Below, piece by piece: positions 1 through 14,369 of a stretch of DNA of 14,369 bases. The translations under genes were made by a program, and so were the position numbers. Source of the stretch: a virus; the UHGV virus genome UHGV-0126033. One strand, given 5' to 3'. Position 1 is the first letter of the stretch. Each line of letters starts with the position of its first letter. The notes below the pieces were generated by a model. It had not been told where the DNA came from. It saw only the letters and a list, made by a program, of their open reading frames with translations, and did no database searches.

Positions 1-815
1 AGTCCACGACACATCGCCCCGTCAGCTTGCGCTGGGAGCTGTGCAGGTAGGTCCTGCTCCTGGTCTACACGAGACTGGTTGGATACCCCAGCATAAGTAT
101 CGCCAGCGTCGGAGGATACCACACAGTTGCTCAACCCATAGAAGAACAAGTATGCGCCGCGTACGCTAACGTTCCCAGCTGGCAATCCATTCGCTACAAG
201 AGAGTCTCGCAGCTGCTGAGCAACGTAGGCACCTGATACCTCCTCAGCGTTACCACTGGTACTGCCAGCAGCTGGGGCGGTGTAGTCCCCGGAGTAATCT
301 ACCCCGGCAGATGTAACAGTGATGTTCCAGCGTTTCTGGAATGCTGCAGATTTAACGTAGAAGAACCCAGTGGTGCCTGGGTCAATACGCCCCGTATTGT
401 CCACGGTTGTGTTCGGGGCCATCTCCGTATTCAGGATATAAGTCAGTCCAGCAATACTCGCGGTCTGCAAAGAGGTCTGACCCACGGTGGTAATAAAGTA
501 CGGGTCGTTTCCGGAGTTAAGGATGGTCTTTCCATTCTTAGCCAGTAACCACCAGTTACCGTTGCTGGTGTTAATCAGCAGGTGCCTGCCGTCAGTTCCA
601 CGCTCTACGTATTCAGTGAACAGGGAATCAAGCCCTGGACTATCAATCGTGCTTTCCCAGACAATCTCACCAGGAGGTCTGCGGCGGATACCGGAAACCG
701 GGTCGCTGAGCATGTTCAGCTGCGCCCCCAGTTGTCCTGGTTGGCGCTCTCTCGGAACCTGTTGGGAAACCCCCTGCAGCAAGCTCTGAATAGTACCTTC
801 TAATGATTGCGCCAT
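1..815 (-). CDS. Tail tubular protein B (T7 gp12-like), N-terminal part; gene continues past the window start
   Basis: Minus-strand ATG at 813-815 preceded by AAGGAGAGG. My translation begins MAQSLEGTIQSLLQGVSQQVPRERQPGQLGAQLNMLSDPVSGIRRRPPGEIVW, which resembles the T7 gp12 N-terminus (GISQQP, RPP) as I recall it. Frame stays open over the roughly 275 nt I translated by hand. Sits directly after the gp11-like gene as in T7-like phages. Confidence 0.8.
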   Translation of the reverse strand, partial: MAQSLEGTIQSLLQGVSQQVPRERQPGQLGAQLNMLSDPVSGIRRRPPGEIVWESTIDSPGLDSLFTEYVERGTDGRHLLINTSNGNWWLLAKNGKTILNSGNDPYFITTVGQTSLQTASIAGLTYILNTEMAPNTTVDNTGRIDPGTTGFFYVKSAAFQKRWNITVTSAGVDYSGDYTAPAAGSTSGNAEEVSGAYVAQQLRDSLVANGLPAGNVSVRGAYLFFYGLSNCVVSSDAGDTYAGVSNQSRVDQEQDLPAQLPAQADGAMCRG

Positions 816-824
816 AACCTCTCC

Positions 825-1385
825 TTAAACCATAAAACGAGCGCGGCGGATTCTGCGTGCAAAGCGTGTCTTGCTGGTGCTGAACCTTTGGTTGCGCAGA
901 TGCTCACGCAGCACCATGCTCTTGTAGCGCTCAGCTTCCTGTGCGTAATTAGCGTAGTTGCTATCGCCGCCCAGGTCGTTGAGGTACACCTGTGCAGTGG
1001 TATAGTTAGCCACCCACATAGCTGCATGCTCCGGCAGGTCCTCAAAGTCCAAGTCAAGGACTATTTTGAGCTTAACGGAGCTGTCGAAGTATTGGTTCTG
1101 CTCCATCAGGTCGTACAGGTTCCCATCACGCACCCCGTACTTGGAGTCAGAGCCAGCATCGTACACAGCCAACTGGTTCCACGGCACTTTGATAAAACCG
1201 TCAGCAGTGGGAGCAACTTCACGCTCTACCACGTTAAACCAGAATCCTGTGCTGAGTAACCCGCGACGATTGCGCGCAAGCGCAGAGCGAGCTAACCCCG
1301 CACTGGGGTTACTGGTGTTGATGTCCATAACGCGAGACTCCCCCAGGGCTTCAAGCGTCAGGTTCACAGCATCTAATTCTCTCAT
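825..1385 (-). CDS. Tail tubular protein A (T7 gp11-like)
   Basis: Track ORF 825..1460, but the likely start is the ATG at 1383-1385 (MRELDAVNLTLEALGESRV...) with AGAGGA upstream. The longer version would run through the terminator hairpin. Overall resemblance to T7 gp11 from memory (N-terminal A-V-N-x-x-L-x-x-IGE pattern, similar length). Stop TAA at 825-827. Confidence 0.8.
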   Translation of the reverse strand: MRELDAVNLTLEALGESRVMDINTSNPSAGLARSALARNRRGLLSTGFWFNVVEREVAPTADGFIKVPWNQLAVYDAGSDSKYGVRDGNLYDLMEQNQYFDSSVKLKIVLDLDFEDLPEHAAMWVANYTTAQVYLNDLGGDSNYANYAQEAERYKSMVLREHLRNQRFSTSKTRFARRIRRARFMV

Positions 1386-1430: not shown

Positions 1431-1467
1431 AAAAAAAAAGCCCCTGGCACCCGAAGGCACCAGGGGC
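1431..1467 (-). terminator. Rho-independent terminator between the capsid-distal small ORF and the tail tubular genes (T-phi-like position)
   Basis: Minus-strand RNA reads GCCCCUGGUGCC-UUCG-GGUGCCAGGGGC followed by nine U. That is a 12-bp GC-rich stem (two G-U pairs), a UUCG tetraloop and a U9 tract, directly seen in the sequence. Confidence 0.8.
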
Positions 1468-1472
1468 GCGTA

Positions 1473-1655
1473 CTACTCTTCCGTAGTATCAGCGGCTACG
1501 TCAACCGCCTTACGGGTTTTCTTGGTAGCCTTGCGGCCAGACTCGACCGAAGCCACCTGGATGTTCTTCGCTACATCGGTGGCGGCCTTAACCGCCTCCC
1601 GCTGAGCTGCATTGGCCTGGAGAGTCTCCAGACCGAACGTAGCAATTACTGCCAT
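1473..1655 (-). CDS. Hypothetical small protein (60 aa, Lys/Ala-rich) immediately after the capsid gene
   Basis: ATG at 1653-1655 with GGAGG five nt upstream. Lies in the -1 frame relative to the capsid gene and is followed by the terminator. No recognisable motif. Confidence 0.55.
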   Translation of the reverse strand: MAVIATFGLETLQANAAQREAVKAATDVAKNIQVASVESGRKATKKTRKAVDVAADTTEE

Positions 1656-1666
1656 TGAACCTCCAA

Positions 1667-2686
1667 TTAGGGCTTGGTGGTGAAGGTGAACTTGGTCACT
1701 GCAGCGGTGTCCGGACGGCGCAGGCCGATGTTGTACATCGCGTAGCAGTCCAGCACGTTGCTGAACTCGCGCTCATCATCCCAGATACGGGAGGTGAACG
1801 GCTTAGCTTCAACAGTCACCAGGGTCTTGGACTTGCTGAAAGTCACCATACGGCACAGCGCGTCGTCAGAGGTGACGGTGTAAGCAGAGCCCAACGGGTG
1901 CGTACCGGCAGCGGTCGGGAACTCGGTGCACTCTACCACAGGCACGCCGTTCATCTTCACTACACGGCGGTCTTTGTAACCGTCGTTGTTGGATGCACCG
2001 AAGTCCAGGTTCAGGAGCTTCGGATGCTCCAGCAGACGCGAATAGGTATCGACATCCACCAGGGTAATCATGTCCGCCAGCGGGGTCTTGCGCTTGATGA
2101 GTTCATCGATACCAGCCTTGTGGGCCAGGTTGATGTTCATAGCGTTCGCCTCCATCTCAGCCTGGGTCAGCTGCGTGGCGGTGGTGGTACCCGGAACCAG
2201 GACGGCTGCGCCCACCTCGATACCGTCATTGAATGCTGGTTTCAGGTGCGCCGGAGCAACCCAGGAGCGGCCCTTGATGAGCTGAATCAGGTGCGCCTGG
2301 TCGAAGGTCTCCGCGAACTCAGAGCCGTTGTTCTGACCCATCTCGGTCAGGAAGTCCGGACCGGTCCAGTCATCCTGGTAGTCAATCGGGTTACGGATAT
2401 ACAGCACCGTATCCACCACGATAATCATCTTATCGTTACGGACCGGGGTGCTATCCAGCGCCTCACCGGAGCGACGACCTTTCACCGAGGAGGTGTTCAG
2501 GCGGTCAATACGGTAGGTGTTGGAACCACTGATAGAGCGCTGGCTGGAGAGGCCCAGGAACAGAGCCTGGTACTGGAAGCGGGTGTCGACTTCATTCTGG
2601 TACACTTCCAGGTGAATATCGACGTCAGACGCCGCGCCTGCCCAGTGGGCTCTTGTCAAGTTAGCTTTATAGATGGTATCGGCCAT
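1667..2686 (-). CDS. Major capsid protein (T7 gp10A-like)
   Basis: 339 aa, ATG at 2684-2686 with AAGGAAAG upstream. C-terminal YAMYNIGLRRPDTAAV resembles the T7 gp10A C-terminus (AKYAMGHGGLRPEAAGAV) as I recall it. Position after the scaffold gene and similar length to T7 10A (345 aa). Confidence 0.88.
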   Translation of the reverse strand: MADTIYKANLTRAHWAGAASDVDIHLEVYQNEVDTRFQYQALFLGLSSQRSISGSNTYRIDRLNTSSVKGRRSGEALDSTPVRNDKMIIVVDTVLYIRNPIDYQDDWTGPDFLTEMGQNNGSEFAETFDQAHLIQLIKGRSWVAPAHLKPAFNDGIEVGAAVLVPGTTTATQLTQAEMEANAMNINLAHKAGIDELIKRKTPLADMITLVDVDTYSRLLEHPKLLNLDFGASNNDGYKDRRVVKMNGVPVVECTEFPTAAGTHPLGSAYTVTSDDALCRMVTFSKSKTLVTVEAKPFTSRIWDDEREFSNVLDCYAMYNIGLRRPDTAAVTKFTFTTKP

Positions 2687-2698
2687 ATTCTACTTTCC

Positions 2699-3175
2699 TT
2701 ATTTAAGTACATTAACAGATGCATAAGCATGCATCTTTGCTTTAGCTTTCAGGTAGGCATCTCGCGCTGCGTGTTCGCAGTCAAAGTGCCCGAGGTGTGT
2801 TGTCTTACCATTTAGCTGTATGTAGGCCCGCCACTTGTTAGCTCGGGAATCCCAACAATAGCCTTTCCACACAGAGTTCTGAGCGTTACCTGATTTGTCA
2901 ACTAGGCGCAGGTTCTCAATTCTATTGTCTGCTTTATCCAGATTAATGTGGTCCACCATCAACCCTTGGGGTATATCCCCGTGATGCATGAACCAAACAA
3001 GCCGGTGTGCATACTCTCTCACCCGTCCCGCTGCCCCGCGGTCCCAGGTCACGCGGCGGTATCCCCAGTTATTCTGGTAGGTATCACCGAAACGACCTGT
3101 GGCCTTGTTAATCAAGCGCCCGTCTTCTGTGTAGGTGTAGCGATTAGCTAGTTCTTGCAAGAGATTAATCTCCAT
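2699..3175 (-). CDS. Free-standing HNH homing endonuclease with AP2-like DNA-binding domain
   Basis: 158 aa. HNH region YAHRLVWFMHHGDIPQGLMVDHINLDKADNRIENLRLV and AP2-like region WDSRANKWRAYIQLNGKTTHLGHFDCEHAARDAY. No clear Shine-Dalgarno; starts 12 nt after the scaffold stop. Confidence 0.85.
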   Translation of the reverse strand: MEINLLQELANRYTYTEDGRLINKATGRFGDTYQNNWGYRRVTWDRGAAGRVREYAHRLVWFMHHGDIPQGLMVDHINLDKADNRIENLRLVDKSGNAQNSVWKGYCWDSRANKWRAYIQLNGKTTHLGHFDCEHAARDAYLKAKAKMHAYASVNVLK

Positions 3176-3187
3176 GATTGGTAAGTA

Positions 3188-4030
3188 TTAGAGACCTACG
3201 CGCTTACCGGCTTCACGGCGTGCGAGCAAATCGTTATAACGTTGACTGAACTGTGGGGATGCCAAGCTACGGTTGCCCGCTTCCTGACGGAGTTTGGTAT
3301 ACTCTGCACGGAAGTCCGCAGCAGATAGTGCATTGTTGCTAGCTACGCCTCGTACCATTGGGTTCTGTGTCTTGATAAGACCCATATCCCGGCAGAAGCC
3401 CGCCACCAACTCGGCGGCCTGCTTAAGCTCGCCTGCGTTAGCGAGTACACGAGCTGCGTTACGCAGAGGTTCCGGAGCCTTGGAATTAAACAGCTGCGCT
3501 GCTACCTCCCAGTTCTCCTTCCCGCCTACAATATCGTAAGCTTCCTGTACTGCTTTGGTGGCTTGGCCAACCTGGTCTTCCAGGTACGCCTTGGCCAGCA
3601 GCTCTGCATAAGCAGCGTGCTCGCCGAAACGTTCCTTAATGAAGGCCGTATCGATTAGGTTAGGGTCCTGGTACTCCAGGGCCTTACCAAGTGCCCGCAC
3701 CATATCAGAGTCAGTTAACCCAGAGACTTTCTGCAACATAGCTACACCGGCGTCAATCGTCGGGTTGCCAGTCTTAGCCAGCTCCTGGGGCTGCTCTTTA
3801 GCGCTATCGCCACCCTTATCCAGGGCCGCTTTTAGGGCTTCGATATCCAGAGGAATCTTAGCAGGGTCAGGGGAATCTTTGCCCTGTTGCTGCTGGGTAG
3901 GTGTCTGTGCATCCTGCACGCCTTGATTGTTCGGGGCGCTAAGGGGAGCACCTAGGCCCGGAATCTTAGGACCACCTTGGTTCTCTACCTGTGTAGTTTC
4001 TACGTTTTGACCGTTTTCTACGTTATCCAT
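3188..4030 (-). CDS. Capsid assembly (scaffolding) protein, T7 gp9-like
   Basis: 280 aa, acidic, Ala/Gln/Glu-rich and low in aromatics. ATG at 4028-4030 with AGAGG upstream. Called by position between portal and capsid and by composition; no specific motif. Confidence 0.65.
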   Translation of the reverse strand: MDNVENGQNVETTQVENQGGPKIPGLGAPLSAPNNQGVQDAQTPTQQQQGKDSPDPAKIPLDIEALKAALDKGGDSAKEQPQELAKTGNPTIDAGVAMLQKVSGLTDSDMVRALGKALEYQDPNLIDTAFIKERFGEHAAYAELLAKAYLEDQVGQATKAVQEAYDIVGGKENWEVAAQLFNSKAPEPLRNAARVLANAGELKQAAELVAGFCRDMGLIKTQNPMVRGVASNNALSAADFRAEYTKLRQEAGNRSLASPQFSQRYNDLLARREAGKRVGL

Positions 4031-4044
4031 CTATGCCTCTGTTG

Positions 4045-5640
4045 TTAACTTGGTAATAAGCCCAGCTGCTTACCTGCTACTGTCGGGTCCGCTGCTGTCA
4101 AGCCCTGGAGTTGGTCCTGTGCTGCACCTGCGGATACATCGGCAGACGCATCTTGAACCTGTTGCTTCTGCTGCAGCTGCTCTTCGGTGTACATGAACGG
4201 CTCGCTGACGATACCATAGGCGTCGAAGTACCAGTCTACACACGCATCCTTGTTGAAGCGCGGAGTAATCTGCTCAAGCACCGGGATAGCCAGCTGCATG
4301 GACTGTGCCGCCTCTAACAGCTTGTCCGCTGCCGCGGCTTTAGCCAGCGCAGAGGTACCTACTGTAACGTTGATGCTCACCACGCCTTCGCTGAGGTACA
4401 ACTTAAAGCGAGGGTACACCAGTGCAGTGTACAGGTACGCCAGCTTACGCAGCCAGGTGTCGCTCAGGATACTGAACCCACCACCCATAGCGGCTTCCGC
4501 CTCTTTGGCGTTCTGGCGAATCTCATAAGCCGTGACACGCTCACCCTGCCGGGAGTTGCCGGTGTACATAAACGCACGAGACAGTTTCTGTTCGAGCATC
4601 TGGATGTTGCTGGCAATCCACTGAATCTTCTGGGCAGAGCCGCCCTCGTAAGCAGTGACAGGAGACTTAGTGTTTCCGTTGGAACCACCGCCGCCCACCT
4701 GCACGGCCTCCCCGGTCTCCGCCGTAGAGAACTCGTCCACATCCAGGCCAGAACTAGAATCTACTAGTGGAATCAGCCGAGAGGCTTCGACCTCGTAGTT
4801 AGTCAGTGCTTCCGACAGTACCGATAATCGGGCAAAGTCCCCAGCGTAGTCCTCTACCAAGCCGCGCCCGTAGTGCTCGCCACTAACAAGGTTCCACACC
4901 AGCACGTTGTAGGGGAGCTCCAGCTCCGGATAGGTGCTGCTGTCCCCGATACGGTGTCCATCGGCTTCTTGATACACCTCGTAGCTTACTACCTCTACGC
5001 CTTCCTCTGTCAGCTTAACTTTGCGACAAGCGGCAGTGTAGATATCAACGTCGCCGTATGGGTCTTTGTCACGGTAGAAGGTGTTCTGGAAATCCTCTGG
5101 CAGGTCCTGGACGCTTGTGCGCTCTCTGATAATGAGTCGCAGGACGTTCCCGCTGCCATCCCTTCGAACGGTAAAGTTACGAACTGAGTAGACGATGGAT
5201 TTACCTGTCCGCTCATCAATATACTCCAACGCGTTACCTGTAACCAGCAGCAGCTTCACAGCTTGCAACTTCGCAGCATAACCGTCTTTCTCAAATACTT
5301 TCTGTGACGCTGTGTTCTCAACCTCAGCCAGCTTAGATTCTGCCGTAGCTGCACTGCCCAGCGAACTAATGAACTCGTCCAGGTCCGAACTCTTGGAGAA
5401 CCGGAAGAAGCTAGTGCCCTGAGGGAACAGTGCCCCTACAATCTTAGTGGCTGCAGTGTTGACCAGCTGCGCGCCGGTGCTCTGGTAGTCACGCTCTAGC
5501 GGTCTGCGTCTACCGTCCAGGGAATCGTCCCGGGTAAAGATAGTGCTGAGCGTCCACTGCGCGAACTTCTCGGAGGCATCCAATACACCTGCGTCCTGGT
5601 CCTTCTTAAAGAGTTCTGCTAATGTTGCTTTTTGTTCCAA
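4045..5640 (-). CDS. Portal (head-tail connector) protein, T7 gp8-like
   Basis: 531 aa (T7 gp8 is 536 aa). N-terminus MEQKATLAE resembles T7 gp8 MAEKRTGLAE as recalled. Apparent TTG start at 5638-5640 with AGGGGG four nt upstream; no in-frame ATG near the 5' end. Confidence 0.75.
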   Translation of the reverse strand: MEQKATLAELFKKDQDAGVLDASEKFAQWTLSTIFTRDDSLDGRRRPLERDYQSTGAQLVNTAATKIVGALFPQGTSFFRFSKSSDLDEFISSLGSAATAESKLAEVENTASQKVFEKDGYAAKLQAVKLLLVTGNALEYIDERTGKSIVYSVRNFTVRRDGSGNVLRLIIRERTSVQDLPEDFQNTFYRDKDPYGDVDIYTAACRKVKLTEEGVEVVSYEVYQEADGHRIGDSSTYPELELPYNVLVWNLVSGEHYGRGLVEDYAGDFARLSVLSEALTNYEVEASRLIPLVDSSSGLDVDEFSTAETGEAVQVGGGGSNGNTKSPVTAYEGGSAQKIQWIASNIQMLEQKLSRAFMYTGNSRQGERVTAYEIRQNAKEAEAAMGGGFSILSDTWLRKLAYLYTALVYPRFKLYLSEGVVSINVTVGTSALAKAAAADKLLEAAQSMQLAIPVLEQITPRFNKDACVDWYFDAYGIVSEPFMYTEEQLQQKQQVQDASADVSAGAAQDQLQGLTAADPTVAGKQLGLLPS

Positions 5641-5649
5641 GCTACCCCC

Positions 5650-5916
5650 TTACAGGCCCAGAGGATTGCTCTGCCCTGCTTGTCGCCGTTTCTTCTGCTC
5701 AGACGTAATTGCATCTGCAGATTCAGAGGCAGCCCCTGCGGGGTCAATCTCAGCAATGTTATCTGCGGCGCTATTAGCCTCTAAGGCAGCCTGTTGTTTA
5801 GCTGCGCTGGCCTGCTGCTCTGCCAAGCGCTGCTGCGCCTCTAATCCTGCGTTGTCAGTAAGGCCGAGCATGTCCGTGGCCTTACCTAACAGCTTACCTA
5901 AATTACCACCACTCAT
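5650..5916 (-). CDS. Hypothetical protein (88 aa, Ala/Gln-rich)
   Basis: ATG at 5914-5916 overlaps the upstream gene stop as ATGA; GAGGT upstream. Lies between RNAP and portal, where phiKMV-like phages carry small genes of unknown function. Confidence 0.5.
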   Translation of the reverse strand: MSGGNLGKLLGKATDMLGLTDNAGLEAQQRLAEQQASAAKQQAALEANSAADNIAEIDPAGAASESADAITSEQKKRRQAGQSNPLGL

Positions 5917-6353
5917 TCTGACCTCACTAAATGATAAGTTGTCTTGTACGTGTTATCCGATGTACTCCGGCTAATGGCTATACGCCCAGCGCGCATGCAT
6001 TTGGCTATTGCGCGCAGGCCTTGCATAATCACAGACACTGCCGCGCCGTTGTCCGGTTTCAATACGAAGAAGTCTGTATACAGCACAGGCTCTACGTAAT
6101 GACAGTCCTCTACAGCCTCTGGGTAGTAGCTGACAGCACCGACTAAGTCGCCTTGGGAGTCATAGACTCCTAGTATATACTGTTTACCCAGTATACTTCC
6201 CAGCACCCTCCAGTAGTGCTGCTCTGGAGCCAGGCCCCGACTAATGCCGTGGCCCAGTTCATGCAGTTGCTTCACTGCGTCCGTAATGTCGTCAGACTTA
6301 TACAGAACTCTGAGAGTGTAGTCGGAAGTTTTACTAGTGTGTTTTAACTTCAT
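5913..6353 (-). CDS. Hypothetical protein (146 aa)
   Basis: ATG at 6351-6353 with AGGAG five nt upstream, 25 nt after the RNAP stop. No confident motif; faint acetyltransferase-like feel is not supported well enough to call. Confidence 0.55.
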   Translation of the reverse strand: MKLKHTSKTSDYTLRVLYKSDDITDAVKQLHELGHGISRGLAPEQHYWRVLGSILGKQYILGVYDSQGDLVGAVSYYPEAVEDCHYVEPVLYTDFFVLKPDNGAAVSVIMQGLRAIAKCMRAGRIAISRSTSDNTYKTTYHLVRSE

Positions 6354-6378
6354 TCCTACTCCTGTAACATTAAATTTT

Positions 6379-8847
6379 TTAGCAGAAGAAGAACGGGGAT
6401 TCTAGCACTTGCCGGATGTCCAAAGTGCCCACTTCCGGCATGTCCAGGTCCGTCAAGTCTGCCCCGGCTGCTGCTGCCGCGCGAGTAATGTAGCCAAGCA
6501 GGTCATTCTCTTCATACAGGCGCACAAACTGCTCACGGATGTGCCTATGCATAGCGTCAACGTCAGCTGCGTGAGTAGCCAGCGAGTCGTGAATAGGCAC
6601 AATGTCCAACCCCTCCGCAGCACAGAGCACCATCATCAAGTGCGTACTGTCCAGGCTATGCACAAAGTTCGGGGCAATCCCGGAGGCTGCCTTGCGCTTG
6701 TTGCAAGTTTTGAAGTCCCGGTTGTGTACCAGTACCGCTGACAGGTTCATGCAGTCAATACGTACGCGCACTTCTTCACGCTGCGTGTAGCGGTTCATTA
6801 CGAGCCCACCCAGCGGCGTATACCACTGCAGATGCTGGCTTGCCGGTACACGCCTAGCGAGGTTCTGCAAGTACCCCATAACTGCGGCTGCGGCTGGGTT
6901 TGCCTCCTCGATAGCAGTGCGCATACGCGGAGCCAGGTAGCATGACAAGTTCCACAGACTGTTAGTCTCAGTACCCTCGTACCCCTCAGCGCAAGCGCCT
7001 TCGAAGATGTAGTCGCTGCAGCTGCGCACAGTGGCGCTGTAGAAGTAGGTCATACTAGGGCGCTTGGTCATGCTGCGGGTGATTTCGTTCTCTCTCCAGT
7101 ACGTGCTCTGGATAACGAAATCCTCCTTGTCCAGGTCCAGTATCACCTTCTCGTCCGTACGGCGCTTCACGTCCATGTACAGGTCCGCTTTCTTATCATT
7201 ACCCTCCCAGTACAGGTTCGTCAAGCGTCCGCCCACAGGGTCTCTCAGGAGCGCTGAGAGATGCTGTCCACCTGAGTTTGTAGCGTCCATAGCAACTGGG
7301 ATTCGGCTAATATGCTCTTCTGGGCATCCAGAACGAACCGCATTAACCAAGTCGATAGCGGCGGCCAGCAGGCACCAGGGGCTATCCGCAGAGGAAAAAG
7401 CAGGGGCATCAAGAGGAGAATCCGCGAGCCTCTCAATCTCTGCATAGTTCGCATCAACCCAAGCTGCACGGTCTTCGAATAGGGTTTTGTCATAACCAAA
7501 GCAAGTGGCGACGTGCACTTTAAGCCAGAAAAGTCCGCGCTCTCCCAGAGGCTTGCCACGTCCGAATTCAAGAAGGGCTTTCTGCAAATCAGAACCTTGG
7601 GGATGCAGCGAGGACTTGAAGTACAGGCGGTAGCGCCAGTCCACACAAGTCGGGAAGTACAGGGCTTTCTCATCTTTGAATTCCTCCGCCATTTCCAGCG
7701 TGGTCAACAGGCTGCGTAGTTGTGACACACGCTTACGGTCTGCGCTGTACCATAGGGACATGCGCGTCTTCCACTCACCGAAGCGGCCCAGTTCTTCTTC
7801 GGTGTAGTTCTCTTTTGGTACTCCATCCAAGTACCACTCCGGTTTAGGCTCTGGTACTGAGCGGGGCATGCCCACCCCAATACCCAGGGCCCGTGCTTCT
7901 TGCACCAGTTCCAGTATGCGCTTATTAATACGGTATGGGGTTTCCTGTGCCTTATTAAGCGCCTTCTTGATGCCGTCCGCGGACTTAAATGCTTCCGCTA
8001 CTTCACGGAGTCGCGCGCGGTCGATGTGCGAGTTGTGATAGGTCCCGCGATTGTCGATGGGGGTAAGGTACCCGCCATCCCACATAGTGGTGTGCTGTAC
8101 CGGTGGCACCAGCATAGGCGGCTTCATGGTTACGGTATCAGCGGACTCTACCAGTTTCTGGAAGGCCTCCATAACATCGTCAGCCGGGTAGAGCATGCTC
8201 AGGTTCCCACTACAGTTCTTCCATTGGAACAGGCCAGTCTCAAACACCGCGGCACATAGCAGCCGACCTACTGAGATATTCTGGGAGTTGGTCCATGGCT
8301 CGTGCCCATAGTGCACGTTCTCAGCACTGGCCCGCAGCGTACGCAGGATGTGCGTGGGAGACTTGGTCTTACGCTCCGTAAGGTACTCGTACACACGGTC
8401 CATGTACGCCGGAGCCACGTTGCGTAACTGCAGGGCCAGCAGTTCCGATTGTACGTTCCGGCCCAGCGCGGACATTACCGCCTGTGCAGTCTGGCGGCGG
8501 CTAGCGGACTCGCCAGGAGCTACGCTAAATGCCTCAAACATTGTGCATAGGCTCAGGGTGGTCAGGACATCCAAGGGGACTAAGCGCAGGAACCGGCGGT
8601 ACTTACCGCCAATGCCCGGGGCTTTTACATTTCGCATCTCATCGATAGCGGCGGCGGCCACCTCATATGCCGAGGTGAGCATACGCTGCGTCATCGGCAG
8701 GTTCATAATCCCACCGTTCTGCAATGCGTCCGTAATCAGCTTACGTGCCCGCTCGATTCCGCGAATCTTATAGGTCTCTTCAAGCTCCAGCTGGCGTTTC
8801 ACCAGTGCTTCCTCTGGTACTACAACCGTATTCAGGGCGCTAATCAT
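6379..8847 (-). CDS. Single-subunit DNA-directed RNA polymerase (T7 RNAP family)
   Basis: 822 aa. Matches to T7 RNAP conserved blocks: YFPTCVDWRYRLY and HPQGSD, DATNSGGQHLSALLRD (motif A aspartate), ASGIAPNFVHSLDSTHL, IHDSLAT (motif C aspartate), C-terminal LESPFFFC (T7 ends ESDFAFA). ATG at 8845-8847 with AAGGAGA upstream. Confidence 0.95.
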   Translation of the reverse strand: MISALNTVVVPEEALVKRQLELEETYKIRGIERARKLITDALQNGGIMNLPMTQRMLTSAYEVAAAAIDEMRNVKAPGIGGKYRRFLRLVPLDVLTTLSLCTMFEAFSVAPGESASRRQTAQAVMSALGRNVQSELLALQLRNVAPAYMDRVYEYLTERKTKSPTHILRTLRASAENVHYGHEPWTNSQNISVGRLLCAAVFETGLFQWKNCSGNLSMLYPADDVMEAFQKLVESADTVTMKPPMLVPPVQHTTMWDGGYLTPIDNRGTYHNSHIDRARLREVAEAFKSADGIKKALNKAQETPYRINKRILELVQEARALGIGVGMPRSVPEPKPEWYLDGVPKENYTEEELGRFGEWKTRMSLWYSADRKRVSQLRSLLTTLEMAEEFKDEKALYFPTCVDWRYRLYFKSSLHPQGSDLQKALLEFGRGKPLGERGLFWLKVHVATCFGYDKTLFEDRAAWVDANYAEIERLADSPLDAPAFSSADSPWCLLAAAIDLVNAVRSGCPEEHISRIPVAMDATNSGGQHLSALLRDPVGGRLTNLYWEGNDKKADLYMDVKRRTDEKVILDLDKEDFVIQSTYWRENEITRSMTKRPSMTYFYSATVRSCSDYIFEGACAEGYEGTETNSLWNLSCYLAPRMRTAIEEANPAAAAVMGYLQNLARRVPASQHLQWYTPLGGLVMNRYTQREEVRVRIDCMNLSAVLVHNRDFKTCNKRKAASGIAPNFVHSLDSTHLMMVLCAAEGLDIVPIHDSLATHAADVDAMHRHIREQFVRLYEENDLLGYITRAAAAAGADLTDLDMPEVGTLDIRQVLESPFFFC

Positions 8848-8988
8848 AGGCGCTTAGTCTCCTTGGTTATGTCCGGTACTTCTAACTACTGATTGCGACT
8901 TACCCAGAGATTGTACATCTCCAGGTAGTCTTTAGCGGCGCGTTCGTCTCCCCGCTCTACTGCTTTCTGCCACATCCCGTGGCACCAC

Positions 8989-9444
8989 TCACTTGGCGTC
9001 AATGCACTTACCTCTGTGTTGCTCGTATAGTTCTGAGTACTTGTCGGACTTGGCAATGTCTTGTTCCAGCTTATCCTTGTTCCCGGCGCGCAGTCTGTAC
9101 TTGAGCCGGTTCCCCAGGCAGTATCCGTAGAACTGCTCTTTCGTCATACTGCGTGCAATCACCTCAATTGCCTCCAGGTCCGGGAAGAACTGGTAGTGCT
9201 TGGGTGAGTTCACTGCGTCGGGCGCTTGTGTGCTGGTTATGGGGACTTCCCCCGCTACATGGAAGTAGTCCGCGCGCCAACCGCCAGCTAGGTCTCCGCT
9301 TAGTGTAATTGTGGTGCCACTAACCTCAAGCACCTCCCTGGAGGCGTATGGGGAGATATGAAGAGACTCGCAGATTCGAGACCAGTCACCCGACACGTGC
9401 GTAGCTTTACGAACTACCACATCACCAACTTTAATATTACTCAT
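8989..9444 (-). CDS. T7 gp1.7-like protein (DUF3310 C-terminal domain; putative nucleotide kinase) with a different N-terminal domain
   Basis: 151 aa. C-terminal HYQFFPDLEAIEVIARSMTKEQFYGYCLGNRLKYRLRAGNK resembles the T7 gp1.7 C-terminus (HYMLFDDIEAIEVIARSMTVEQFKGYCFGNILKYRLRAGKK) as recalled. N-terminal 70 aa (MSNIKVGDVVVRK...) lacks the T7 gp1.7 Cys-rich region. ATG at 9442-9444 overlaps the endonuclease VII stop as ATGA. Confidence 0.7.
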   Translation of the reverse strand: MSNIKVGDVVVRKATHVSGDWSRICESLHISPYASREVLEVSGTTITLSGDLAGGWRADYFHVAGEVPITSTQAPDAVNSPKHYQFFPDLEAIEVIARSMTKEQFYGYCLGNRLKYRLRAGNKDKLEQDIAKSDKYSELYEQHRGKCIDAK

Positions 9445-9884
9445 TTAATAGTCTCCCGTGCTTTACGTCGTGCCCGGGCCTTGCGGGCCTTGAGCTTCTG
9501 TGCCTGCGCCAATTCTTCCGGCGTCTTGTGCGTATAGTATAGCATATCCGTAGGTTCGCGGTCTAAGTAATCGGCGACCCTACGTAGAGATTCAGCAATA
9601 GCCCCAGAAGATTGCATGCTACCAACAATCCAGCGCCCAGCGGCAGATGCCACTTTGCCTTCCCCTCCATTGCACGAGCGATGAAGAGCACCCCGAATAC
9701 GCCCAGTAATATGATCGTGGTCAACGACAACAGAATCACCAGTTACCCCCTTGATTGTGAAGTCCAAAGGTTTGCCACAAAGGGGGCAGATACCTCCCTG
9801 GTCTTTGGCAAGCTTAATTGCCACGGAGCGAATCTGTGCCCGTGTAATCTTCCGCAGACTCATACGTATATGAACCCCCACCAT
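9441..9884 (-). CDS. Endonuclease VII-like Holliday-junction resolvase (T4 gp49 family)
   Basis: CPLCGKPL followed by VVVDHDHITGRIRGALHRSCNGGEG, the zinc-binding and DHDH pattern of endonuclease VII. Start uncertain: ATG at 9884 has no Shine-Dalgarno; ATG at 9863 (MSLRK...) has a G-rich stretch upstream. Confidence 0.8.
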   Translation of the reverse strand: MVGVHIRMSLRKITRAQIRSVAIKLAKDQGGICPLCGKPLDFTIKGVTGDSVVVDHDHITGRIRGALHRSCNGGEGKVASAAGRWIVGSMQSSGAIAESLRRVADYLDREPTDMLYYTHKTPEELAQAQKLKARKARARRKARETIK

Positions 9885-9983
9885 AAATGCGCGGAGCGTA
9901 TGTGAGCTACGGTCAGTGCCGGAGACATCACCTCTCCGGTGTTAGTGCACCTAACCTGAACCCCTTGCTGTGGGGCGGGTTCC

Positions 9984-10011
9984 AATATATACACGTCTTG
10001 TGTATCCTCAA
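9984..10011 (-). promoter_or_regulatory. Candidate sigma70-like promoter (TTGAGG, 16 nt, TATATT) in the intergenic region upstream of the endonuclease VII gene
   Basis: On the minus strand TTGAGG (plus 10006-10011) and TATATT (plus 9984-9989) with a 16-nt spacer. Match by eye only, in the most AT-rich part of an otherwise GC-richer window. Confidence 0.25.
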
Positions 10012-10032
10012 AAGTATATTCTCTACCCATTT

Positions 10033-10233
10033 CTAACATAGTTCAATCTCCCCCACTACATCCAGCATAGCATTGTCGTGAATGAGAGAATCCAAATGCT
10101 CAACCGTTCTTCGATGTGTTTTGGGTGCTCGTTCACGCAGCGCAACCAGAATAGTTTCAAGTTCATCATGTTTCCCCTCGTAGTATAACTCAATCGCCCG
10201 CAGGCTCATTTCCTTCGCAGACATCTTCGCCAT
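10033..10233 (-). CDS. Hypothetical small acidic protein (66 aa from the ATG at 10233)
   Basis: Track ORF 10033..10302. The ATG at 10231-10233 (MAKMSAKEM...) has AGGAG 12 nt upstream and overlaps the exonuclease 3' end by 44 nt. Glu/Asp-rich. No motif. Confidence 0.45.
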   Translation of the reverse strand: MAKMSAKEMSLRAIELYYEGKHDELETILVALRERAPKTHRRTVEHLDSLIHDNAMLDVVGEIELC

Positions 10234-11158
10234 TGTCTGGGTGCTCCTGTATCCACTGTATATGCTGTTTATGGTACTCGTGCAGCGAATGCACCCAGTC
10301 ACGCAGACTGGGAGTAGTCAACAGTGACATCAGATACAGGTACGCTGAATCTGACGGGGAGCGCCGCAGGAACAGGCATTCTGCCTCTGCGAGTACATCT
10401 TGGTTGTTTCGAGCGTAAGCCGCTACAACGAATTCTGCGGCGTCCTGCTCTGAGGTAATAGGGTAGATAGCATCAAAGGCCGTTCGCTTCCCACAGAGCT
10501 TCCCATCAAGCAATGTGATGCCTTTGACGTTATCTGCGTCATCTCCTGCTAGCATCTGCCACCAGAAGAACTTAGTGCCATGCGCTCGTACCGGCATAGC
10601 CTGGGTATCATCCCACTTAATCCATCCGAAGGGGTTATCCAAGGCAGGCCATACGGTTCCGGTTGGGATATCGAACCGGGCCATAGGGCTGAGCCAGGAG
10701 TCCTTGTCCTGAGACATCAGGATTCCACGGTCCCCGAAGCTGTACGAATCCATTATGAACAGGTCATCCGCCTCGAAGTAGTCACTGCTTACTACCTGAA
10801 TACCCTGCTCAGAATACTGGTCTGGATTTTCAATCAGGTGCCGCTTCAATGGCGCCTTGAGCGGTAGCTCCTGTCGATTAGCGCGCTGCCCCTGATAGGG
10901 CTTAGCCGTAGGCAGGTGCCAGCGCAAACACTTGGCGCATCCCGTAGGCGTCAGATACGCAACTGCTTCTGAGCAGCCGACCAGGAACATGTCCTCAAGC
11001 ACCAGCTGATAGAAGCGGCGTATTGCGGTGTCCAAACGTTTCACTGTAGCGGCAGATTTATAAACTGTGAAATCCGCATCGTACAGCAGAATCTTCCCAG
11101 AGTTCTGCGGAGCTAACTGCTCCCCGAGCTGGGACAAGTCAACCCCGTTGATAATCAT
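10190..11158 (-). CDS. 5'-3' exonuclease (FEN family, T7 gp6-like)
   Basis: 322 aa. Acidic active-site blocks in the expected order: ILLYDADFTVYKSA, FEADDLFIMD, MSQDKDSW, LAGDDADNVKGI. ATG at 11156-11158. Confidence 0.8.
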   Translation of the reverse strand: MIINGVDLSQLGEQLAPQNSGKILLYDADFTVYKSAATVKRLDTAIRRFYQLVLEDMFLVGCSEAVAYLTPTGCAKCLRWHLPTAKPYQGQRANRQELPLKAPLKRHLIENPDQYSEQGIQVVSSDYFEADDLFIMDSYSFGDRGILMSQDKDSWLSPMARFDIPTGTVWPALDNPFGWIKWDDTQAMPVRAHGTKFFWWQMLAGDDADNVKGITLLDGKLCGKRTAFDAIYPITSEQDAAEFVVAAYARNNQDVLAEAECLFLRRSPSDSAYLYLMSLLTTPSLRDWVHSLHEYHKQHIQWIQEHPDNGEDVCEGNEPAGD

Positions 11159-12479: not shown

Positions 12480-13268
12480 TTAGGCTTGATGTGCGGCGGG
12501 TGCTGCTGGCGCCACAGGGGCTGCAGGGGCCACTGGTGCAGCCGGGGCTGCGGGTGCCTGCATAGCCGCCGGACTAGGAACCGAGCCAGCGTTCAGCAGA
12601 ATATCCAGAGCACTGCCAGGGAAGTCTACAGCCTTGTACATATCCTCCTGAATCCAGTTCTTGCTCTTACCATCGTCGAAGGTGCCTTCGATGTGCAGGC
12701 TATCCCAGGTCTCTTTGGTTGGGTTGTTCCACAGGAACAGCTTAATCTCAGAGGCATCCAGGGCAGGCATCTTGATAGGCTCGCCAGTGTTCGGGTCGAA
12801 TTTCGGAATCGGGCGGATACCGGACAGGTCCGCGATGTTGGACTTCTTGCCCGCGGCGCTGGTGTGCTCATCAATCGGGAAGGTGAAGGCCTGGCCCAGA
12901 CGCTGTGCTGCATGCTTAATGCTATTGTCGTAGTTGAGCTTGTCGAAGAACTTCTTGAAGCCTGCGCGCTCAAAGTTACTGATAGCCATCGGGAACGGGC
13001 GGATACGCTTCACTTCGCCGTTAGGACCGAACACTACAATGCCGATGCGTACGTTAGCTACTGCGGGCTTACCGGTCGGCTTGCCACCCTTAGTCGGCAG
13101 GCGCTTACCGATTTCTACGTACTCGGTGAAGTAGCCGTAGTATTCACCCTTCGGCAGCAGCACGTCCTCATACGCACCGCCCTGTGCGGTTTCAGTCATA
13201 TCAACATCCTGCGTTTCAATAGCAGCCGCTACCAGGGAGTTCAGGGTGTCCAGTGCATTCATCGTCAT
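12480..13268 (-). CDS. Hypothetical protein (262 aa) with C-terminal Pro/Ala-rich low-complexity tail
   Basis: ATG at 13266-13268 with GAGGAAG seven nt upstream. C-terminus SPAAMQAPAAPAAPVAPAAPVAPAAPAAHQA. No catalytic motif recognised. Confidence 0.6.
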   Translation of the reverse strand: MTMNALDTLNSLVAAAIETQDVDMTETAQGGAYEDVLLPKGEYYGYFTEYVEIGKRLPTKGGKPTGKPAVANVRIGIVVFGPNGEVKRIRPFPMAISNFERAGFKKFFDKLNYDNSIKHAAQRLGQAFTFPIDEHTSAAGKKSNIADLSGIRPIPKFDPNTGEPIKMPALDASEIKLFLWNNPTKETWDSLHIEGTFDDGKSKNWIQEDMYKAVDFPGSALDILLNAGSVPSPAAMQAPAAPAAPVAPAAPVAPAAPAAHQA

Positions 13269-13319
13269 ATAATTACTTCCTCGTTTAGTTTGAATGATAT
13301 TTACGTGCAGATGCAGGGC

Positions 13320-13490
13320 TTAGCGGGAGGCAGCTTTGAGGGCCACCGCCAAGAACACTAGGATTACGCCGAGTGCCATAGGCCCCCAGAACGGGAGCAG
13401 CACCCACAACCAGGACCAGGCGATAACGCCAGTCAGTTTCAAGGTTACAAAGATAAGGCCCAGTACAGAACAGATTCCCATTTTCATCAT
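13320..13490 (-). CDS. Small membrane protein with two predicted transmembrane helices
   Basis: Track ORF 13320..13538 begins at a TTG inside the upstream gene. In-frame ATGs at 13490, 13487 and 13481 follow AGAGGTG just after the upstream TAA. Protein MMKMGICSVLGLIFVTLKLTGVIAWSWLWVLLPFWGPMALGVILVFLAVALKAASR. Confidence 0.55.
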   Translation of the reverse strand: MMKMGICSVLGLIFVTLKLTGVIAWSWLWVLLPFWGPMALGVILVFLAVALKAASR

Positions 13491-13500
13491 CACCTCTGTG

Positions 13501-14358
13501 TTATTTAGTACGACCAACCCAACGACCATCGTCGTCAAGCAGCATCGGAATTAACTGCGGGCAACCCTCGGTGATTACCATCACACCCAGGATTGGTTTC
13601 TTGCGGGTGAGTCTGCCGTAAGCAAAGGCCATGCTCTTACGGTCAATCAGACACCCAGCATACGCACCAAAGTACAAAGCTGTTGAGCTAGCTGCATATT
13701 GCACCTCAAAGCGACCATGTTCGTGACCAAGGACAAGGCTGGTTCTTTCGTGGCTAGCGTTGAGCATGAAGTCACCCGACACTTGATGCTGGAATCTAAC
13801 CGGGCCAAGTGGGGTATTGAGTACCCACGCGTCAGCCCAAGACCACGCCGGGGCACCATGTTCAGGGAAAAGTATATCTCGGTACTTCTTGATGAATTGC
13901 ACTGGTAGCCCGTGAGCTTTCGCCCTGCGGTAAACCAGACTGCCGTGATTGGAATCGCAAACCAATAGGTTCGGGAACAGTTCATGTAGCTCCTCCAGTA
14001 CGAGCTTAGCTTTCTCCAGCTCCACCCCGGCGCTATCCAGGTTCGGGTTACTTTCGTGGAATGATATAGCGTGGCCGTCCGTCTCGTCGCCTACCTGTAC
14101 AACCATGTCCGGACAGTAGGCGTCTCGCACAGATTCTAAGAAGGCCATAGCATCTACGTGCGTATAGGGGGCATGCAAATCCCCAACTACGAGAATACGG
14201 TGGCACACTTCCGGCACGAAGGTTTTGCCGATGTCATCAGTGGGACTGGGCTGTATGAGCTTTAGTGCCTCCTTCATGTGGGATATTGCCTTACCCTTGC
14301 TCCCAGCGTGGTCTAGGAATATGCTGCGCCAGTACTTCACCATCTGTCGATACACCAC
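13501..14358 (-). CDS. Calcineurin-like metallophosphoesterase (putative nuclease or phosphatase); 5' end uncertain, may extend past the window
   Basis: Metal-ligand motifs in canonical order: VVGDLHAPY, VQVGDETDGH, VCDSNHG, LVLGHEHG. Track start 14358 is a GTG and the frame is still open at the window edge; an ATG at 14341-14343 is an alternative start. Confidence 0.75.
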   Translation of the reverse strand: MVYRQMVKYWRSIFLDHAGSKGKAISHMKEALKLIQPSPTDDIGKTFVPEVCHRILVVGDLHAPYTHVDAMAFLESVRDAYCPDMVVQVGDETDGHAISFHESNPNLDSAGVELEKAKLVLEELHELFPNLLVCDSNHGSLVYRRAKAHGLPVQFIKKYRDILFPEHGAPAWSWADAWVLNTPLGPVRFQHQVSGDFMLNASHERTSLVLGHEHGRFEVQYAASSTALYFGAYAGCLIDRKSMAFAYGRLTRKKPILGVMVITEGCPQLIPMLLDDDGRWVGRTK

Positions 14359-14369
14359 TGGCTCCCCCA

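Follow-up and report, generated by a model that had tools for sequence, protein, structure and literature searches.

A phage RNA polymerase gene that lies directly in front of portal and capsid genes raises two questions: what kind of phage carries it there, and what would its position mean for the order in which the genome is transcribed? We asked both of a window (the whole 14,369-nt stretch of DNA analysed here) that runs, on its minus strand, from the end of a DNA-metabolism block to the start of a structural block. The best joint explanation, to which we give a probability of roughly 95%, is that the window is the central part of the genome of a Klebsiella phage of the genus Drulisvirus, that its RNA polymerase (RNAP) is orthologous to that of phage KP34, and that this RNAP acts by the mechanism proposed below.

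An RNA polymerase of the T7 family

The gene in question is as follows.

6379..8847, minus strand: single-subunit, T7-family DNA-dependent RNA polymerase, 822 aa (Pfam, alignment to T7 structures, identity to KP34)

The open reading frame, which starts with ATG, lies exactly where the original prediction had placed a T7-family polymerase of this length, and the similarity that might have proved lacking is strong. The protein belongs to the Pfam family RNA_pol (PF00940) with an E value of 1.4e-89 and 301.4 bits against a cut-off of 22 bits, and it also carries the N-terminal domain RPOL_N (E 4e-09; 36.7 bits against a cut-off of 30.1). It aligns end to end with the T7 RNA polymerase structures 1aro and 1cez (E ~1e-67). 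In this alignment T7 residues D537, K631, Y639, H784, H811 and D812 correspond to D521, K595, Y603, H730, H753 and D754; the catalytic Asp, Lys and Tyr residues (D521, K595, Y603 and D754) are thus all present. Y603 is the residue altered in the KP34 Y603F enzyme (PMC6834552). Family and fold are shared with the T7 enzyme (gene 1, Studiervirinae), but the two proteins are only ~27-30% identical, and the T7 polymerase has 883 aa, leaving the protein studied here 61 residues shorter.

The similarity to the KP34 polymerase, gp37, is of a different order. Both proteins have 822 aa, 799 of which (97%) are identical in an alignment without gaps, leaving 23 amino-acid substitutions. Only one of these (A765 for D) falls within residues 661-780, a region that contains the counterpart, in the alignment, of the T7 specificity loop. 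Identity reaches 98.5% with the RNAP of Klebsiella phage 6993, and many Drulisvirus polymerases fall between 95 and 98.5%. Judged by its sequence, the 822-aa protein is an orthologue of the characterised KP34 RNA polymerase. Promoter-specific transcription has been demonstrated biochemically with the KP34 enzyme (PMC6834552), and the RNAP of the window should likewise recognise the KP34 promoter.

The genes on either side of the polymerase

Downstream of the RNAP gene, two small genes followed by portal, scaffold, capsid and tail tubular A/B genes had been predicted. These are indeed found on the same strand, with profile matches.

5913..6353, minus strand: 146-aa conserved protein with a GNAT-like predicted fold, equivalent to KP34 gp38 (phrog_5167; AlphaFold2/Foldseek)
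5650..5916, minus strand: 88-aa virion structural protein, equivalent to LUZ19 gp29 and KP34 gp39 (phrog_3112, E 5.5e-26)
4045..5640, minus strand: portal (head-tail connector) (PF12236, E 5.6e-52)
3188..4030, minus strand: head scaffolding protein (phrog_1018, E 5.6e-70)
2699..3175, minus strand: free-standing HNH_3 + AP2 homing endonuclease, between the scaffold and capsid genes (PF13392, E 2e-19)
1667..2686, minus strand: major capsid protein (phrog_267, E 1.8e-96)
1473..1655, minus strand: conserved 60-aa ORF after the capsid gene, equivalent to KP34 gp43 (phrog_7403, E 2.5e-40)
825..1385, minus strand: tail tubular protein A (PF17212, E 8.7e-25)
3..815, minus strand: tail tubular protein B / nozzle, first 271 aa, cut by the window start (Phage_nozzle, PF25675, E 2.1e-45)

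The start codon of tubular protein A was chosen from synteny with KpV475 and from the sequence. The 60-aa ORF is annotated in the matching place in KP34 and KpV475, and LUZ19 gp29 is a homologue of the 88-aa protein (32% identity, E 1e-6). The 146-aa protein requires more caution. It matches a PHROGs family of unknown function (phrog_5167, E 1e-61). Its AlphaFold2 model (pLDDT 79.9) has a predicted GNAT fold: the best 50 PDB matches listed by Foldseek are all GNAT acetyltransferases or probable ones, with a probability of 1.00, E ~1e-5 and TM scores of 0.5-0.6. At the sequence level, no Pfam family was matched at E <= 0.01, and the acetyl-CoA-binding motif (Q/R-x-x-G-x-G/A) is not fitted when judged by eye; past the long central strand the protein reads KPDNGAA, and the family consensus KPGNSxA. 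Because neither a profile nor the motif was found, we call the protein GNAT-like in fold only. Its gene occupies the same slot as that of LUZ19 gp28, which is annotated as GNAT, and the BLASTP match between the two proteins is not significant (E 0.6); what may link them is only the predicted fold and the gene position.

On the upstream side, the exonuclease, endonuclease VII and gp1.7-like genes that had been named were likewise recovered on the minus strand through profile matches.

8886..9056, minus strand: gp1.8-like small ORF between the gp1.7-like gene and the RNAP gene, start codon uncertain (tblastn)
8989..9444, minus strand: gp1.7-like protein (DUF3310), 151 aa (PF11753, E 7.5e-21)
9441..9884, minus strand: recombination endonuclease VII (PF02945, E 9.5e-12; KpV475 gp29, KP34 gp34)
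10190..11158, minus strand: 5'-3' exonuclease (phrog_107, E 2.1e-69; KpV475 gp27, KP34 gp32)
13501..14369, minus strand: metallophosphoesterase, N-terminus cut by the window end (phrog_221, E 6e-98)

Relatives annotate a slightly shorter endonuclease VII gene, and label the gp1.7-like gene a nucleotide kinase (KpV475 gp30). KP34 differs in this stretch, having a short 72-aa gp1.7-like gene and then an HNH gene before the RNAP gene. The gp1.8-like ORF has tblastn matches in 637 phage records and is annotated as "gp1.8" in phage XP4. T7-like genomes, which have both gp1.7-like and gp1.8-like genes, are among these records, and in these the match is located between gene 1.7 (nucleotide kinase) and gene 2 (host RNAP inhibitor) or overlaps them. 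The original prediction contained neither this ORF, nor the location of the HNH gene between scaffold and capsid, nor the 60-aa ORF and terminator after the capsid gene.

Two genes had been taken as additions that mark a distinct lineage, and neither bears this out. The HNH gene, whose AP2 domain scores below the Pfam cut-off, is a sporadic mobile homing endonuclease insertion and not a lineage marker. The stretch 2720..3186 is absent from KpV475, RCIP0106 and KP34 (KP34 has HNH genes elsewhere, but none between scaffold and capsid), and a query containing the gene (2600..3300) is at least 80% covered in just 18 of 224 matching records. XP4 carries the same gene between scaffold and capsid, encoding a 99.4% identical protein. 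The phosphoesterase gene, for its part, has a counterpart at this position in each of the four Drulisvirus genomes that were inspected; KpV475 and XP4 carry it under that name, RCIP0106 and KP34 as a hypothetical gene only. Its Pfam match (PF00149) is barely above the cut-off, at 21.8 against 21.5 bits. An ORF listing had given it as a complete gene starting at 14358, a reading we rejected; no in-frame stop precedes the window end, so the gene, whose product has 326 aa in relatives, is simply cut there.

Pfam gave no match for the scaffold, capsid, exonuclease, 146-aa, 88-aa and 262-aa proteins. PHROGs named five of these six, the 262-aa protein (phrog_862) being returned as "unknown function". 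Two plus-strand ORFs, 1655..2815 (386 aa, antisense to the capsid gene) and 12486..13361 (291 aa, antisense to the 262-aa gene), were set aside as the usual antisense frames of a phage with 54% GC, because the annotated relatives all code on one strand. Neither a tRNA scan nor an Rfam search at gathering thresholds gave any hit in the window.

Relatives and lineage

The published gene arrangement of KP34-like phages (PMC4411677, PMC6834552) is the one seen here: a late RNAP gene before the structural genes is a hallmark of KP34-like Klebsiella phages (Drulisvirus). The window RNAP lies between the DNA-metabolism and structural genes, with the same flanking genes as KP34 gp37, and the window is collinear with KP34, KpV475, RCIP0106 and XP4. 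The placement of the RNAP gene at the end of the DNA-metabolism block had been likened to that of phiKMV-like phages, for which it is typical (PMC6834552), and KP34 itself was originally described as a phiKMV-like phage (PMC6834552, PMC4411677). This comparison holds for gene order. The Pseudomonas phages phiKMV and LUZ19 (Phikmvvirus, Krylovirinae) share the succession of exonuclease, endonuclease VII, further genes, RNAP, small genes (in LUZ19 including a GNAT and a virion protein gene), portal, scaffold, capsid and tubular A/B, and a VP93-like Vibrio phage, also more distant, is collinear as well. Close relationship to Phikmvvirus is a different matter: the LUZ19 RNAP is only 33% identical to that of the window, LUZ19 is without gp1.7/gp1.8-like genes before its RNAP gene and has other phage promoters annotated elsewhere, and the ten organism names that occur most often in the nucleotide matches include no Pseudomonas phage. 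Architecture alone is common to both genera, which now belong to the same family but to different subfamilies.

The original prediction had left a choice between a phiKMV-like and an unclassified lineage of Autographiviridae. In favour of a new lineage, phiKMV-like in gene order only, it can be said that by megablast no deposited genome is nearly identical across the window, the top match being Klebsiella phage RCIP0106 with 95.2% identity over 92% of it, and three islands (2720..3186, 9228..9415 and 9852..10036) are missing from the closest relatives. However, 326 phage records match. The deposited genomes that span 80% or more of the window number 209 and come almost entirely from Klebsiella phages, and the identity of 222 records is between 90 and 95%. 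KpV475, KpV41 and XP4 show 91-95% nucleotide identity at 92-94% coverage; RCIP0106, RCIP0044, KpV475 and vB_Kp_XP4, in the same ranges, are collinear with the window, with mosaic differences in small accessory ORFs and HNH insertions. KpV475 and XP4 are the classified members of this last group, and both, like KP34, are assigned to Drulisvirus. Each variable island is present in other Drulisvirus genomes, so the window is a mosaic within the genus. Together with the polymerase identities given above, this makes a new lineage very improbable, and at the genus level we consider it refuted; what novelty there is may be at the species level. Of the prediction, then, the phiKMV-like architecture stood, and both the unclassified status and a narrow phiKMV affiliation fell. 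Less probable still is that the genome is T7-like or SP6-like, with the RNAP gene in the canonical early place and only seemingly elsewhere through an artefact of the window. The protein does belong to the T7 RNAP family, but it is only ~26-30% identical to T7-like and SP6-like polymerases. In T7-like and SP6-like records the RNAP gene is mostly in the first 2-10 kb of genomes of 38-46 kb (in T7 near the left end), whereas in KP34, LUZ19 and relatives it lies at ~18-22 kb. The early RNAP of T7 and SP6 also drives the DNA-metabolism genes, upstream of which its gene is found in Studiervirinae; the RNAP gene of the window is downstream of the exonuclease and endonuclease VII genes, flanked by the endonuclease VII/gp1.7-like genes and by the portal module. 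This gene order already refutes a T7-like or SP6-like placement.

Drulisvirus belongs to Slopekvirinae in Autoscriptoviridae (formerly Autographiviridae), the family that now also holds phiKMV, and is well populated, with 99 taxa directly beneath the genus. The ICTV guideline for a genus is ~70% nucleotide similarity over the genome, a level that is reached here over the 14.4 kb compared. For the best deposited genome, the product of identity and coverage over the window stays below 95%, so the source phage may be a separate species within Drulisvirus.

Transcription signals and the proposed mechanism

Three signals could be placed on the sequence.

6407..6426, minus strand: counterpart of the KP34 weak promoter, 19/20 match to ACTTTGGACATCCGTCAAGT, inside the 3' end of the RNAP gene
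6357..6372, minus strand: KP34-type strong promoter TAATGTTACAGGAGTA, exact 16/16 match
1440..1467, minus strand: intrinsic terminator with a 12-bp GC-rich stem, a UUCG loop and nine U (terminator scan and fold)

The strong promoter, defined in KP34 by 5'-RACE and in vitro transcription (PMC6834552), starts 6 nt past the RNAP stop codon and is directed at the structural module. It is the sole match in the window with up to 3 mismatches allowed, it differs from the T7 promoter TAATACGACTCACTATA, and it occupies the identical place in KP34, KpV475, RCIP0106 and XP4, in KP34 at an equal distance to the ATG of the next gene. The weak promoter was also defined experimentally in KP34 (PMC6834552); its counterpart, of a quality seen in none of 200 shuffles, departs from it by one synonymous change in an Arg codon, CGG for CGT, leaving the protein as in KP34. 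The terminator folds at -26.5 kcal/mol (z = -4.6) and alone stands out among the terminator-like sites of the window (6, versus 11 in shuffles); it is annotated in the matching place, after the capsid module, in KP34 and KpV475 (see also PMC4411677). A sigma-70 scan yielded 12 sites against 9.0 +/- 3.2 in shuffles, near the shuffle level, and thus says nothing on how the RNAP gene is transcribed. KpV475 has annotated promoters behind the terminator and ahead of gp18, which were rejected because they do not resemble the experimental KP34 promoter. Rejected, too, was the motif predicted by Eriksson et al., which is reported to have failed in vitro (PMC6834552).

The likely mechanism is the published one, with the RNAP being produced towards the end of the DNA-metabolism block and then transcribing the structural genes from the promoter beside its own gene. 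The RNAP gene is the last large gene of the replication/recombination block and is probably co-transcribed with the genes upstream, since neither a promoter match nor a terminator lies between them. The polymerase would then recognise TAATGTTACAGGAGTA just after its own stop codon, as it does in KP34, and transcribe from it the GNAT-like, virion protein, portal, scaffold, HNH and capsid genes. By analogy with T-phi of T7, the hairpin that follows the capsid gene probably reduces the transcription that reaches the tail genes.

How far this arrangement would impose an order in time is less certain. KP34 has a further strong promoter variant near its left end, at nt 475-490 (PMC6834552), whose counterpart region falls outside the window; from such a site the phage RNAP may also transcribe early and middle genes, its own included. 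One could thus suppose that there is no temporal switch, that the RNAP transcribes the whole genome in a positive feedback, and that the downstream promoter only boosts the structural genes. The minus strand from 14369 to 8848 showed no terminator-like site, which makes read-through into the RNAP gene plausible. The first RNAP synthesis must nevertheless still depend on host RNA polymerase, and KP34-like genomes have predicted sigma-70 promoters for that enzyme at their left end (PMC4411677); we regard feedback without a switch as possible but rather unlikely.

The strong promoter may have a second role. The AGGAG ribosome-binding site of the 146-aa gene falls inside it, and the predicted start site is 3 nt before the ATG, so that the start site mapped in KP34 would leave a 3-nt leader (GGA-AUG). 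RNA reading through from upstream would carry the Shine-Dalgarno sequence and RNA started by the phage RNAP would be effectively leaderless, so promoter choice might limit translation of the GNAT-like protein. The overlap is identical in the 5 Drulisvirus sequences examined, and no mention of it was found in the passages of the literature consulted. That promoter choice restricts this translation to the middle phase, through the same promoter that drives the virion genes, is a speculative idea that we think will more probably prove wrong.

The late RNAP position in KP34-like and phiKMV-like phages has reportedly been described since 2003-2011. The position and the type of region are already known and are of little value as a discovery; the characterisation of the KP34 RNAP with its promoters dates from 2019 (Lu et al., PMC6834552; on KP34 see also Drulis-Kawa et al. 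2011). The practical value lies in annotation: the window can be confidently assigned to Drulisvirus, use of the KP34 promoter by its RNAP is to be expected, and positions on the sequence can now be given for the exact promoter, the counterpart of the weak promoter, the terminator and the gp1.8-like small ORF. On the inferred temporal model, the gene's position would couple RNAP production to the change from DNA metabolism to virion assembly.

The RNA polymerase and its gene neighborhood

The window is a single chain of closely packed minus-strand genes, and plus-strand GC skew lies below zero across most of it. As the original prediction had it, the ORF at 6379..8847 has an ATG start and encodes 822 aa, and Pfam and PHROGs searches returned the flanking genes that had been named: exonuclease, endonuclease VII and a gp1.7-like gene before the polymerase, and portal through tail tubular A/B after it. 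At its far end the window also contains a genuine phosphoesterase gene (phrog_221, E 6e-98), truncated by the window boundary.

Features around the RNA polymerase (RNAP) gene, in transcription order
10190..11158, minus strand: exonuclease, upstream of RNAP (phrog_107)
9441..9884, minus strand: endonuclease VII, upstream of RNAP (PF02945)
8989..9444, minus strand: DUF3310/gp1.7-like protein, upstream of RNAP (PF11753)
8886..9056, minus strand: gp1.8-like small ORF, up to 56 aa, start codon uncertain (tblastn)
6379..8847, minus strand: RNAP (PF00940 and PF14700)
5913..6353, minus strand: 146-aa protein, function unknown (phrog_5167)
minus strand: 88-aa protein
minus strand: portal, downstream of RNAP and two small genes (PF12236)
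minus strand: scaffold (phrog_1018)
2699..3175, minus strand: free-standing HNH_3 homing endonuclease with a sub-threshold AP2 match (Pfam), inserted in the short scaffold–capsid spacer; island 2720..3186
minus strand: capsid (phrog_267)
minus strand: 60-aa ORF
1467..1440, minus strand: intrinsic terminator with a 12-bp GC-rich stem, a UUCG tetraloop and nine U (fold)
minus strand: tail tubular A (PF17212)
minus strand: tubular B/nozzle, first 271 residues inside the window (PF25675)

In Pfam, the RNAP scored 301 bits (E 1.4e-89) against PF00940, the single-subunit RNA polymerase catalytic domain, and its N-terminal domain matched PF14700. Residues 13-821 align to T7 RNA polymerase crystal-structure sequences (E about 1e-67), with D521, K595, Y603 and D754 corresponding to the catalytic T7 residues D537, K631, Y639 and D812; mitochondrial RNA polymerases also align, more weakly than the T7 structures. 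Identity is 98.5% with the enzyme of Klebsiella phage 6993, and 799 of the 822 residues are the same, with zero gaps, in KP34 gp37, the type enzyme. The enzyme of a VP93-like Vibrio phage is about 53% identical, values for Acinetobacter phage phiAB1 and Pseudomonas phage LUZ19 drop to 33-35%, and T7-like and SP6-like enzymes share 26-30%.

Elsewhere in the window, a conserved protein of 262 aa, a member of phrog_862 (unknown function; 12480..13268, minus strand), ends in a proline/alanine repeat tail, APAAPAAPVAPAAPVAPAAPAA, and bears spurious names in relatives, such as “large tegument protein”. A 291-aa plus-strand ORF antisense to its gene is probably no gene.

Promoters, terminator and expression

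Lu et al. worked with purified KP34 polymerase and located its promoters by combining 5'-RACE with in vitro transcription (PMC6834552). The strong promoter that they report, T(A/G)ATGTTACAGGAGTA, immediately follows the polymerase gene; a weak, imprecise one, ACTTTGGACATCCGTCAAGT, lies within the 3' end of that gene (PMC6834552). When both were used as queries across the window, the strong promoter gave an exact 16-mer at 6372..6357 (minus strand), beginning 6 nt after the polymerase stop codon and remaining the single match even at 3 mismatches. The counterpart of the weak promoter, at 6426..6407 (minus strand), matches at 19 of 20 positions (0 in 200 shuffles), and its sole difference is a synonymous Arg codon. 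Both the position of the strong promoter and the promoter/AGGAG/ATG context are identical in the Klebsiella phages KP34, KpV475, RCIP0106 and vB_Kp_XP4 (XP4).

The AGGAG inside the strong promoter, TAATGTTACAGGAGTA (6353..6372, minus strand), is the would-be Shine-Dalgarno sequence of the next gene, which starts with the ATG at 6353. By analogy with the start site mapped in KP34, the leader of polymerase-made transcripts would be just 3 nt long (GGA-AUG), which would make the first late gene leaderless on them, whereas read-through transcripts would supply it with a ribosome-binding site. In XP4, the polymerase gene and the strong promoter are separated by an inserted HNH gene (7163..7639 of that record, minus strand). 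The stretch right before the promoter there keeps “...cttctgctaaaaatt”, the polymerase 3' end in other phages, which suggests that inserting the HNH gene duplicated the final polymerase codons or reused them.

Past the capsid gene and 60-aa ORF comes the very stable terminator hairpin (-26.5 kcal/mol, z = -4.6), and a terminator is annotated at the matching position in KP34 and KpV475. The GTG at 1460 in the ORF listing for tubular A falls within it; the true start is the ATG at 1385.

The best-supported mechanism for this region has four steps. Within the DNA-metabolism block, the polymerase gene would be the last large gene to be expressed, its product would initiate at the promoter immediately 3' of its own gene, the structural module would be transcribed by the phage polymerase, and transcription would be attenuated past the capsid gene. 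What the window itself shows is the promoter match, the terminator hairpin and the gene order; promoter recognition would follow by analogy with the 97%-identical KP34 enzyme, the one for which it was demonstrated, and we infer the timing, terminator read-through and the part played by the host polymerase. Because KP34 has another strong promoter near its left end (PMC6834552), the phage polymerase may also transcribe the entire genome, its own gene included, to some extent; the equivalent region falls outside the window.

Small genes and mosaic islands

PHROGs places the 88-aa protein in phrog_3112 (virion structural protein), and it shares 32% identity with LUZ19 gp29. The 146-aa protein had no match in a Pfam search, and nearly all of its relatives in a large protein database exceed 75% identity. 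Its AlphaFold2 model, built from 14 sequences (pLDDT 79.9), was compared with the PDB using Foldseek, and every one of the 50 best matches listed was a GNAT acetyltransferase or a probable one (E about 1e-5, TM 0.5-0.6). The same slot in LUZ19 is filled by gp28, annotated as a GNAT, but sequence similarity between the two is not detectable and an acetyl-CoA motif is not evident in the 146-aa protein, so we predict that it is GNAT-like in fold only. Some records label it “acetyltransferase” or “N-myristoyltransferase”.

The small ORF before the polymerase overlaps the end of the gp1.7-like gene in another frame. A tblastn search found matches to it in 637 phage records, among them T7-like phages, where the match sits at the gene 1.7/gene 2 junction, and on this basis it is a gp1.8 homologue; it is annotated in XP4 and left unannotated in KP34 and KpV475.

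Three small islands (2720..3186, 9228..9415 and 9852..10036) are missing from the closest relatives. The HNH gene at the first, whose best protein match is the XP4 copy (99.4%), had been counted among the signs of the proposed lineage. It is no lineage marker: of 224 records matching a 2600..3300 query, only 18 span 80% or more of that query, a sporadic distribution usual for homing endonucleases. In relatives, similar HNH genes sit at other sites: behind the polymerase, ahead of the exonuclease and behind the phosphoesterase. Of the other two islands, one covers the N-terminal portion of the gp1.7-like protein and the other is a 59-aa ORF situated between exonuclease and endonuclease VII; in the closest genomes they are absent or divergent. 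Because other Drulisvirus records hold both at 90-99% identity, they point to recombination within the genus, and the window is a mosaic within Drulisvirus.

Placement among KP34-like phages

When the full window was run through megablast against a set of 50,697 phage records, 326 matched, nearly all Klebsiella phages; window coverage is at least 80% in 209 of them, and 222 are 90-95% identical. The top record, RCIP0106, is 95.2% identical across 92% of the window. The annotated relatives KpV475, XP4 and KP34 are classified in Slopekvirinae, genus Drulisvirus, which current taxonomy puts within Autographivirales, Autoscriptoviridae, with 99 taxa directly beneath the genus. Gene order is collinear among the window, KP34, KpV475, RCIP0106 and XP4, and at the level of modules the match extends to LUZ19 and the VP93-like Vibrio phage.

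Of the two lineages originally proposed, phiKMV-like or unclassified Autographiviridae, the phiKMV-like branch was right and the unclassified one was wrong, the genus being Drulisvirus. The window shares its architecture with Phikmvvirus, but not a close sequence relationship, and the early polymerase gene by which T7-like phages are recognized is not what it shows. The genus proposal by Eriksson et al. rested partly on conserved polymerase loops and gene order (PMC4411677), and the point that had been made about RNAP placement is stated outright in the literature, where an RNAP gene lying between DNA-metabolism and structural genes is described as typical of phiKMV-like viruses (PMC6834552). 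This placement is a known and experimentally characterized feature. The source phage could be at most a new species in a genus already holding about a hundred, and the region belongs to the KP34-like Drulisvirus group, working as that group does.
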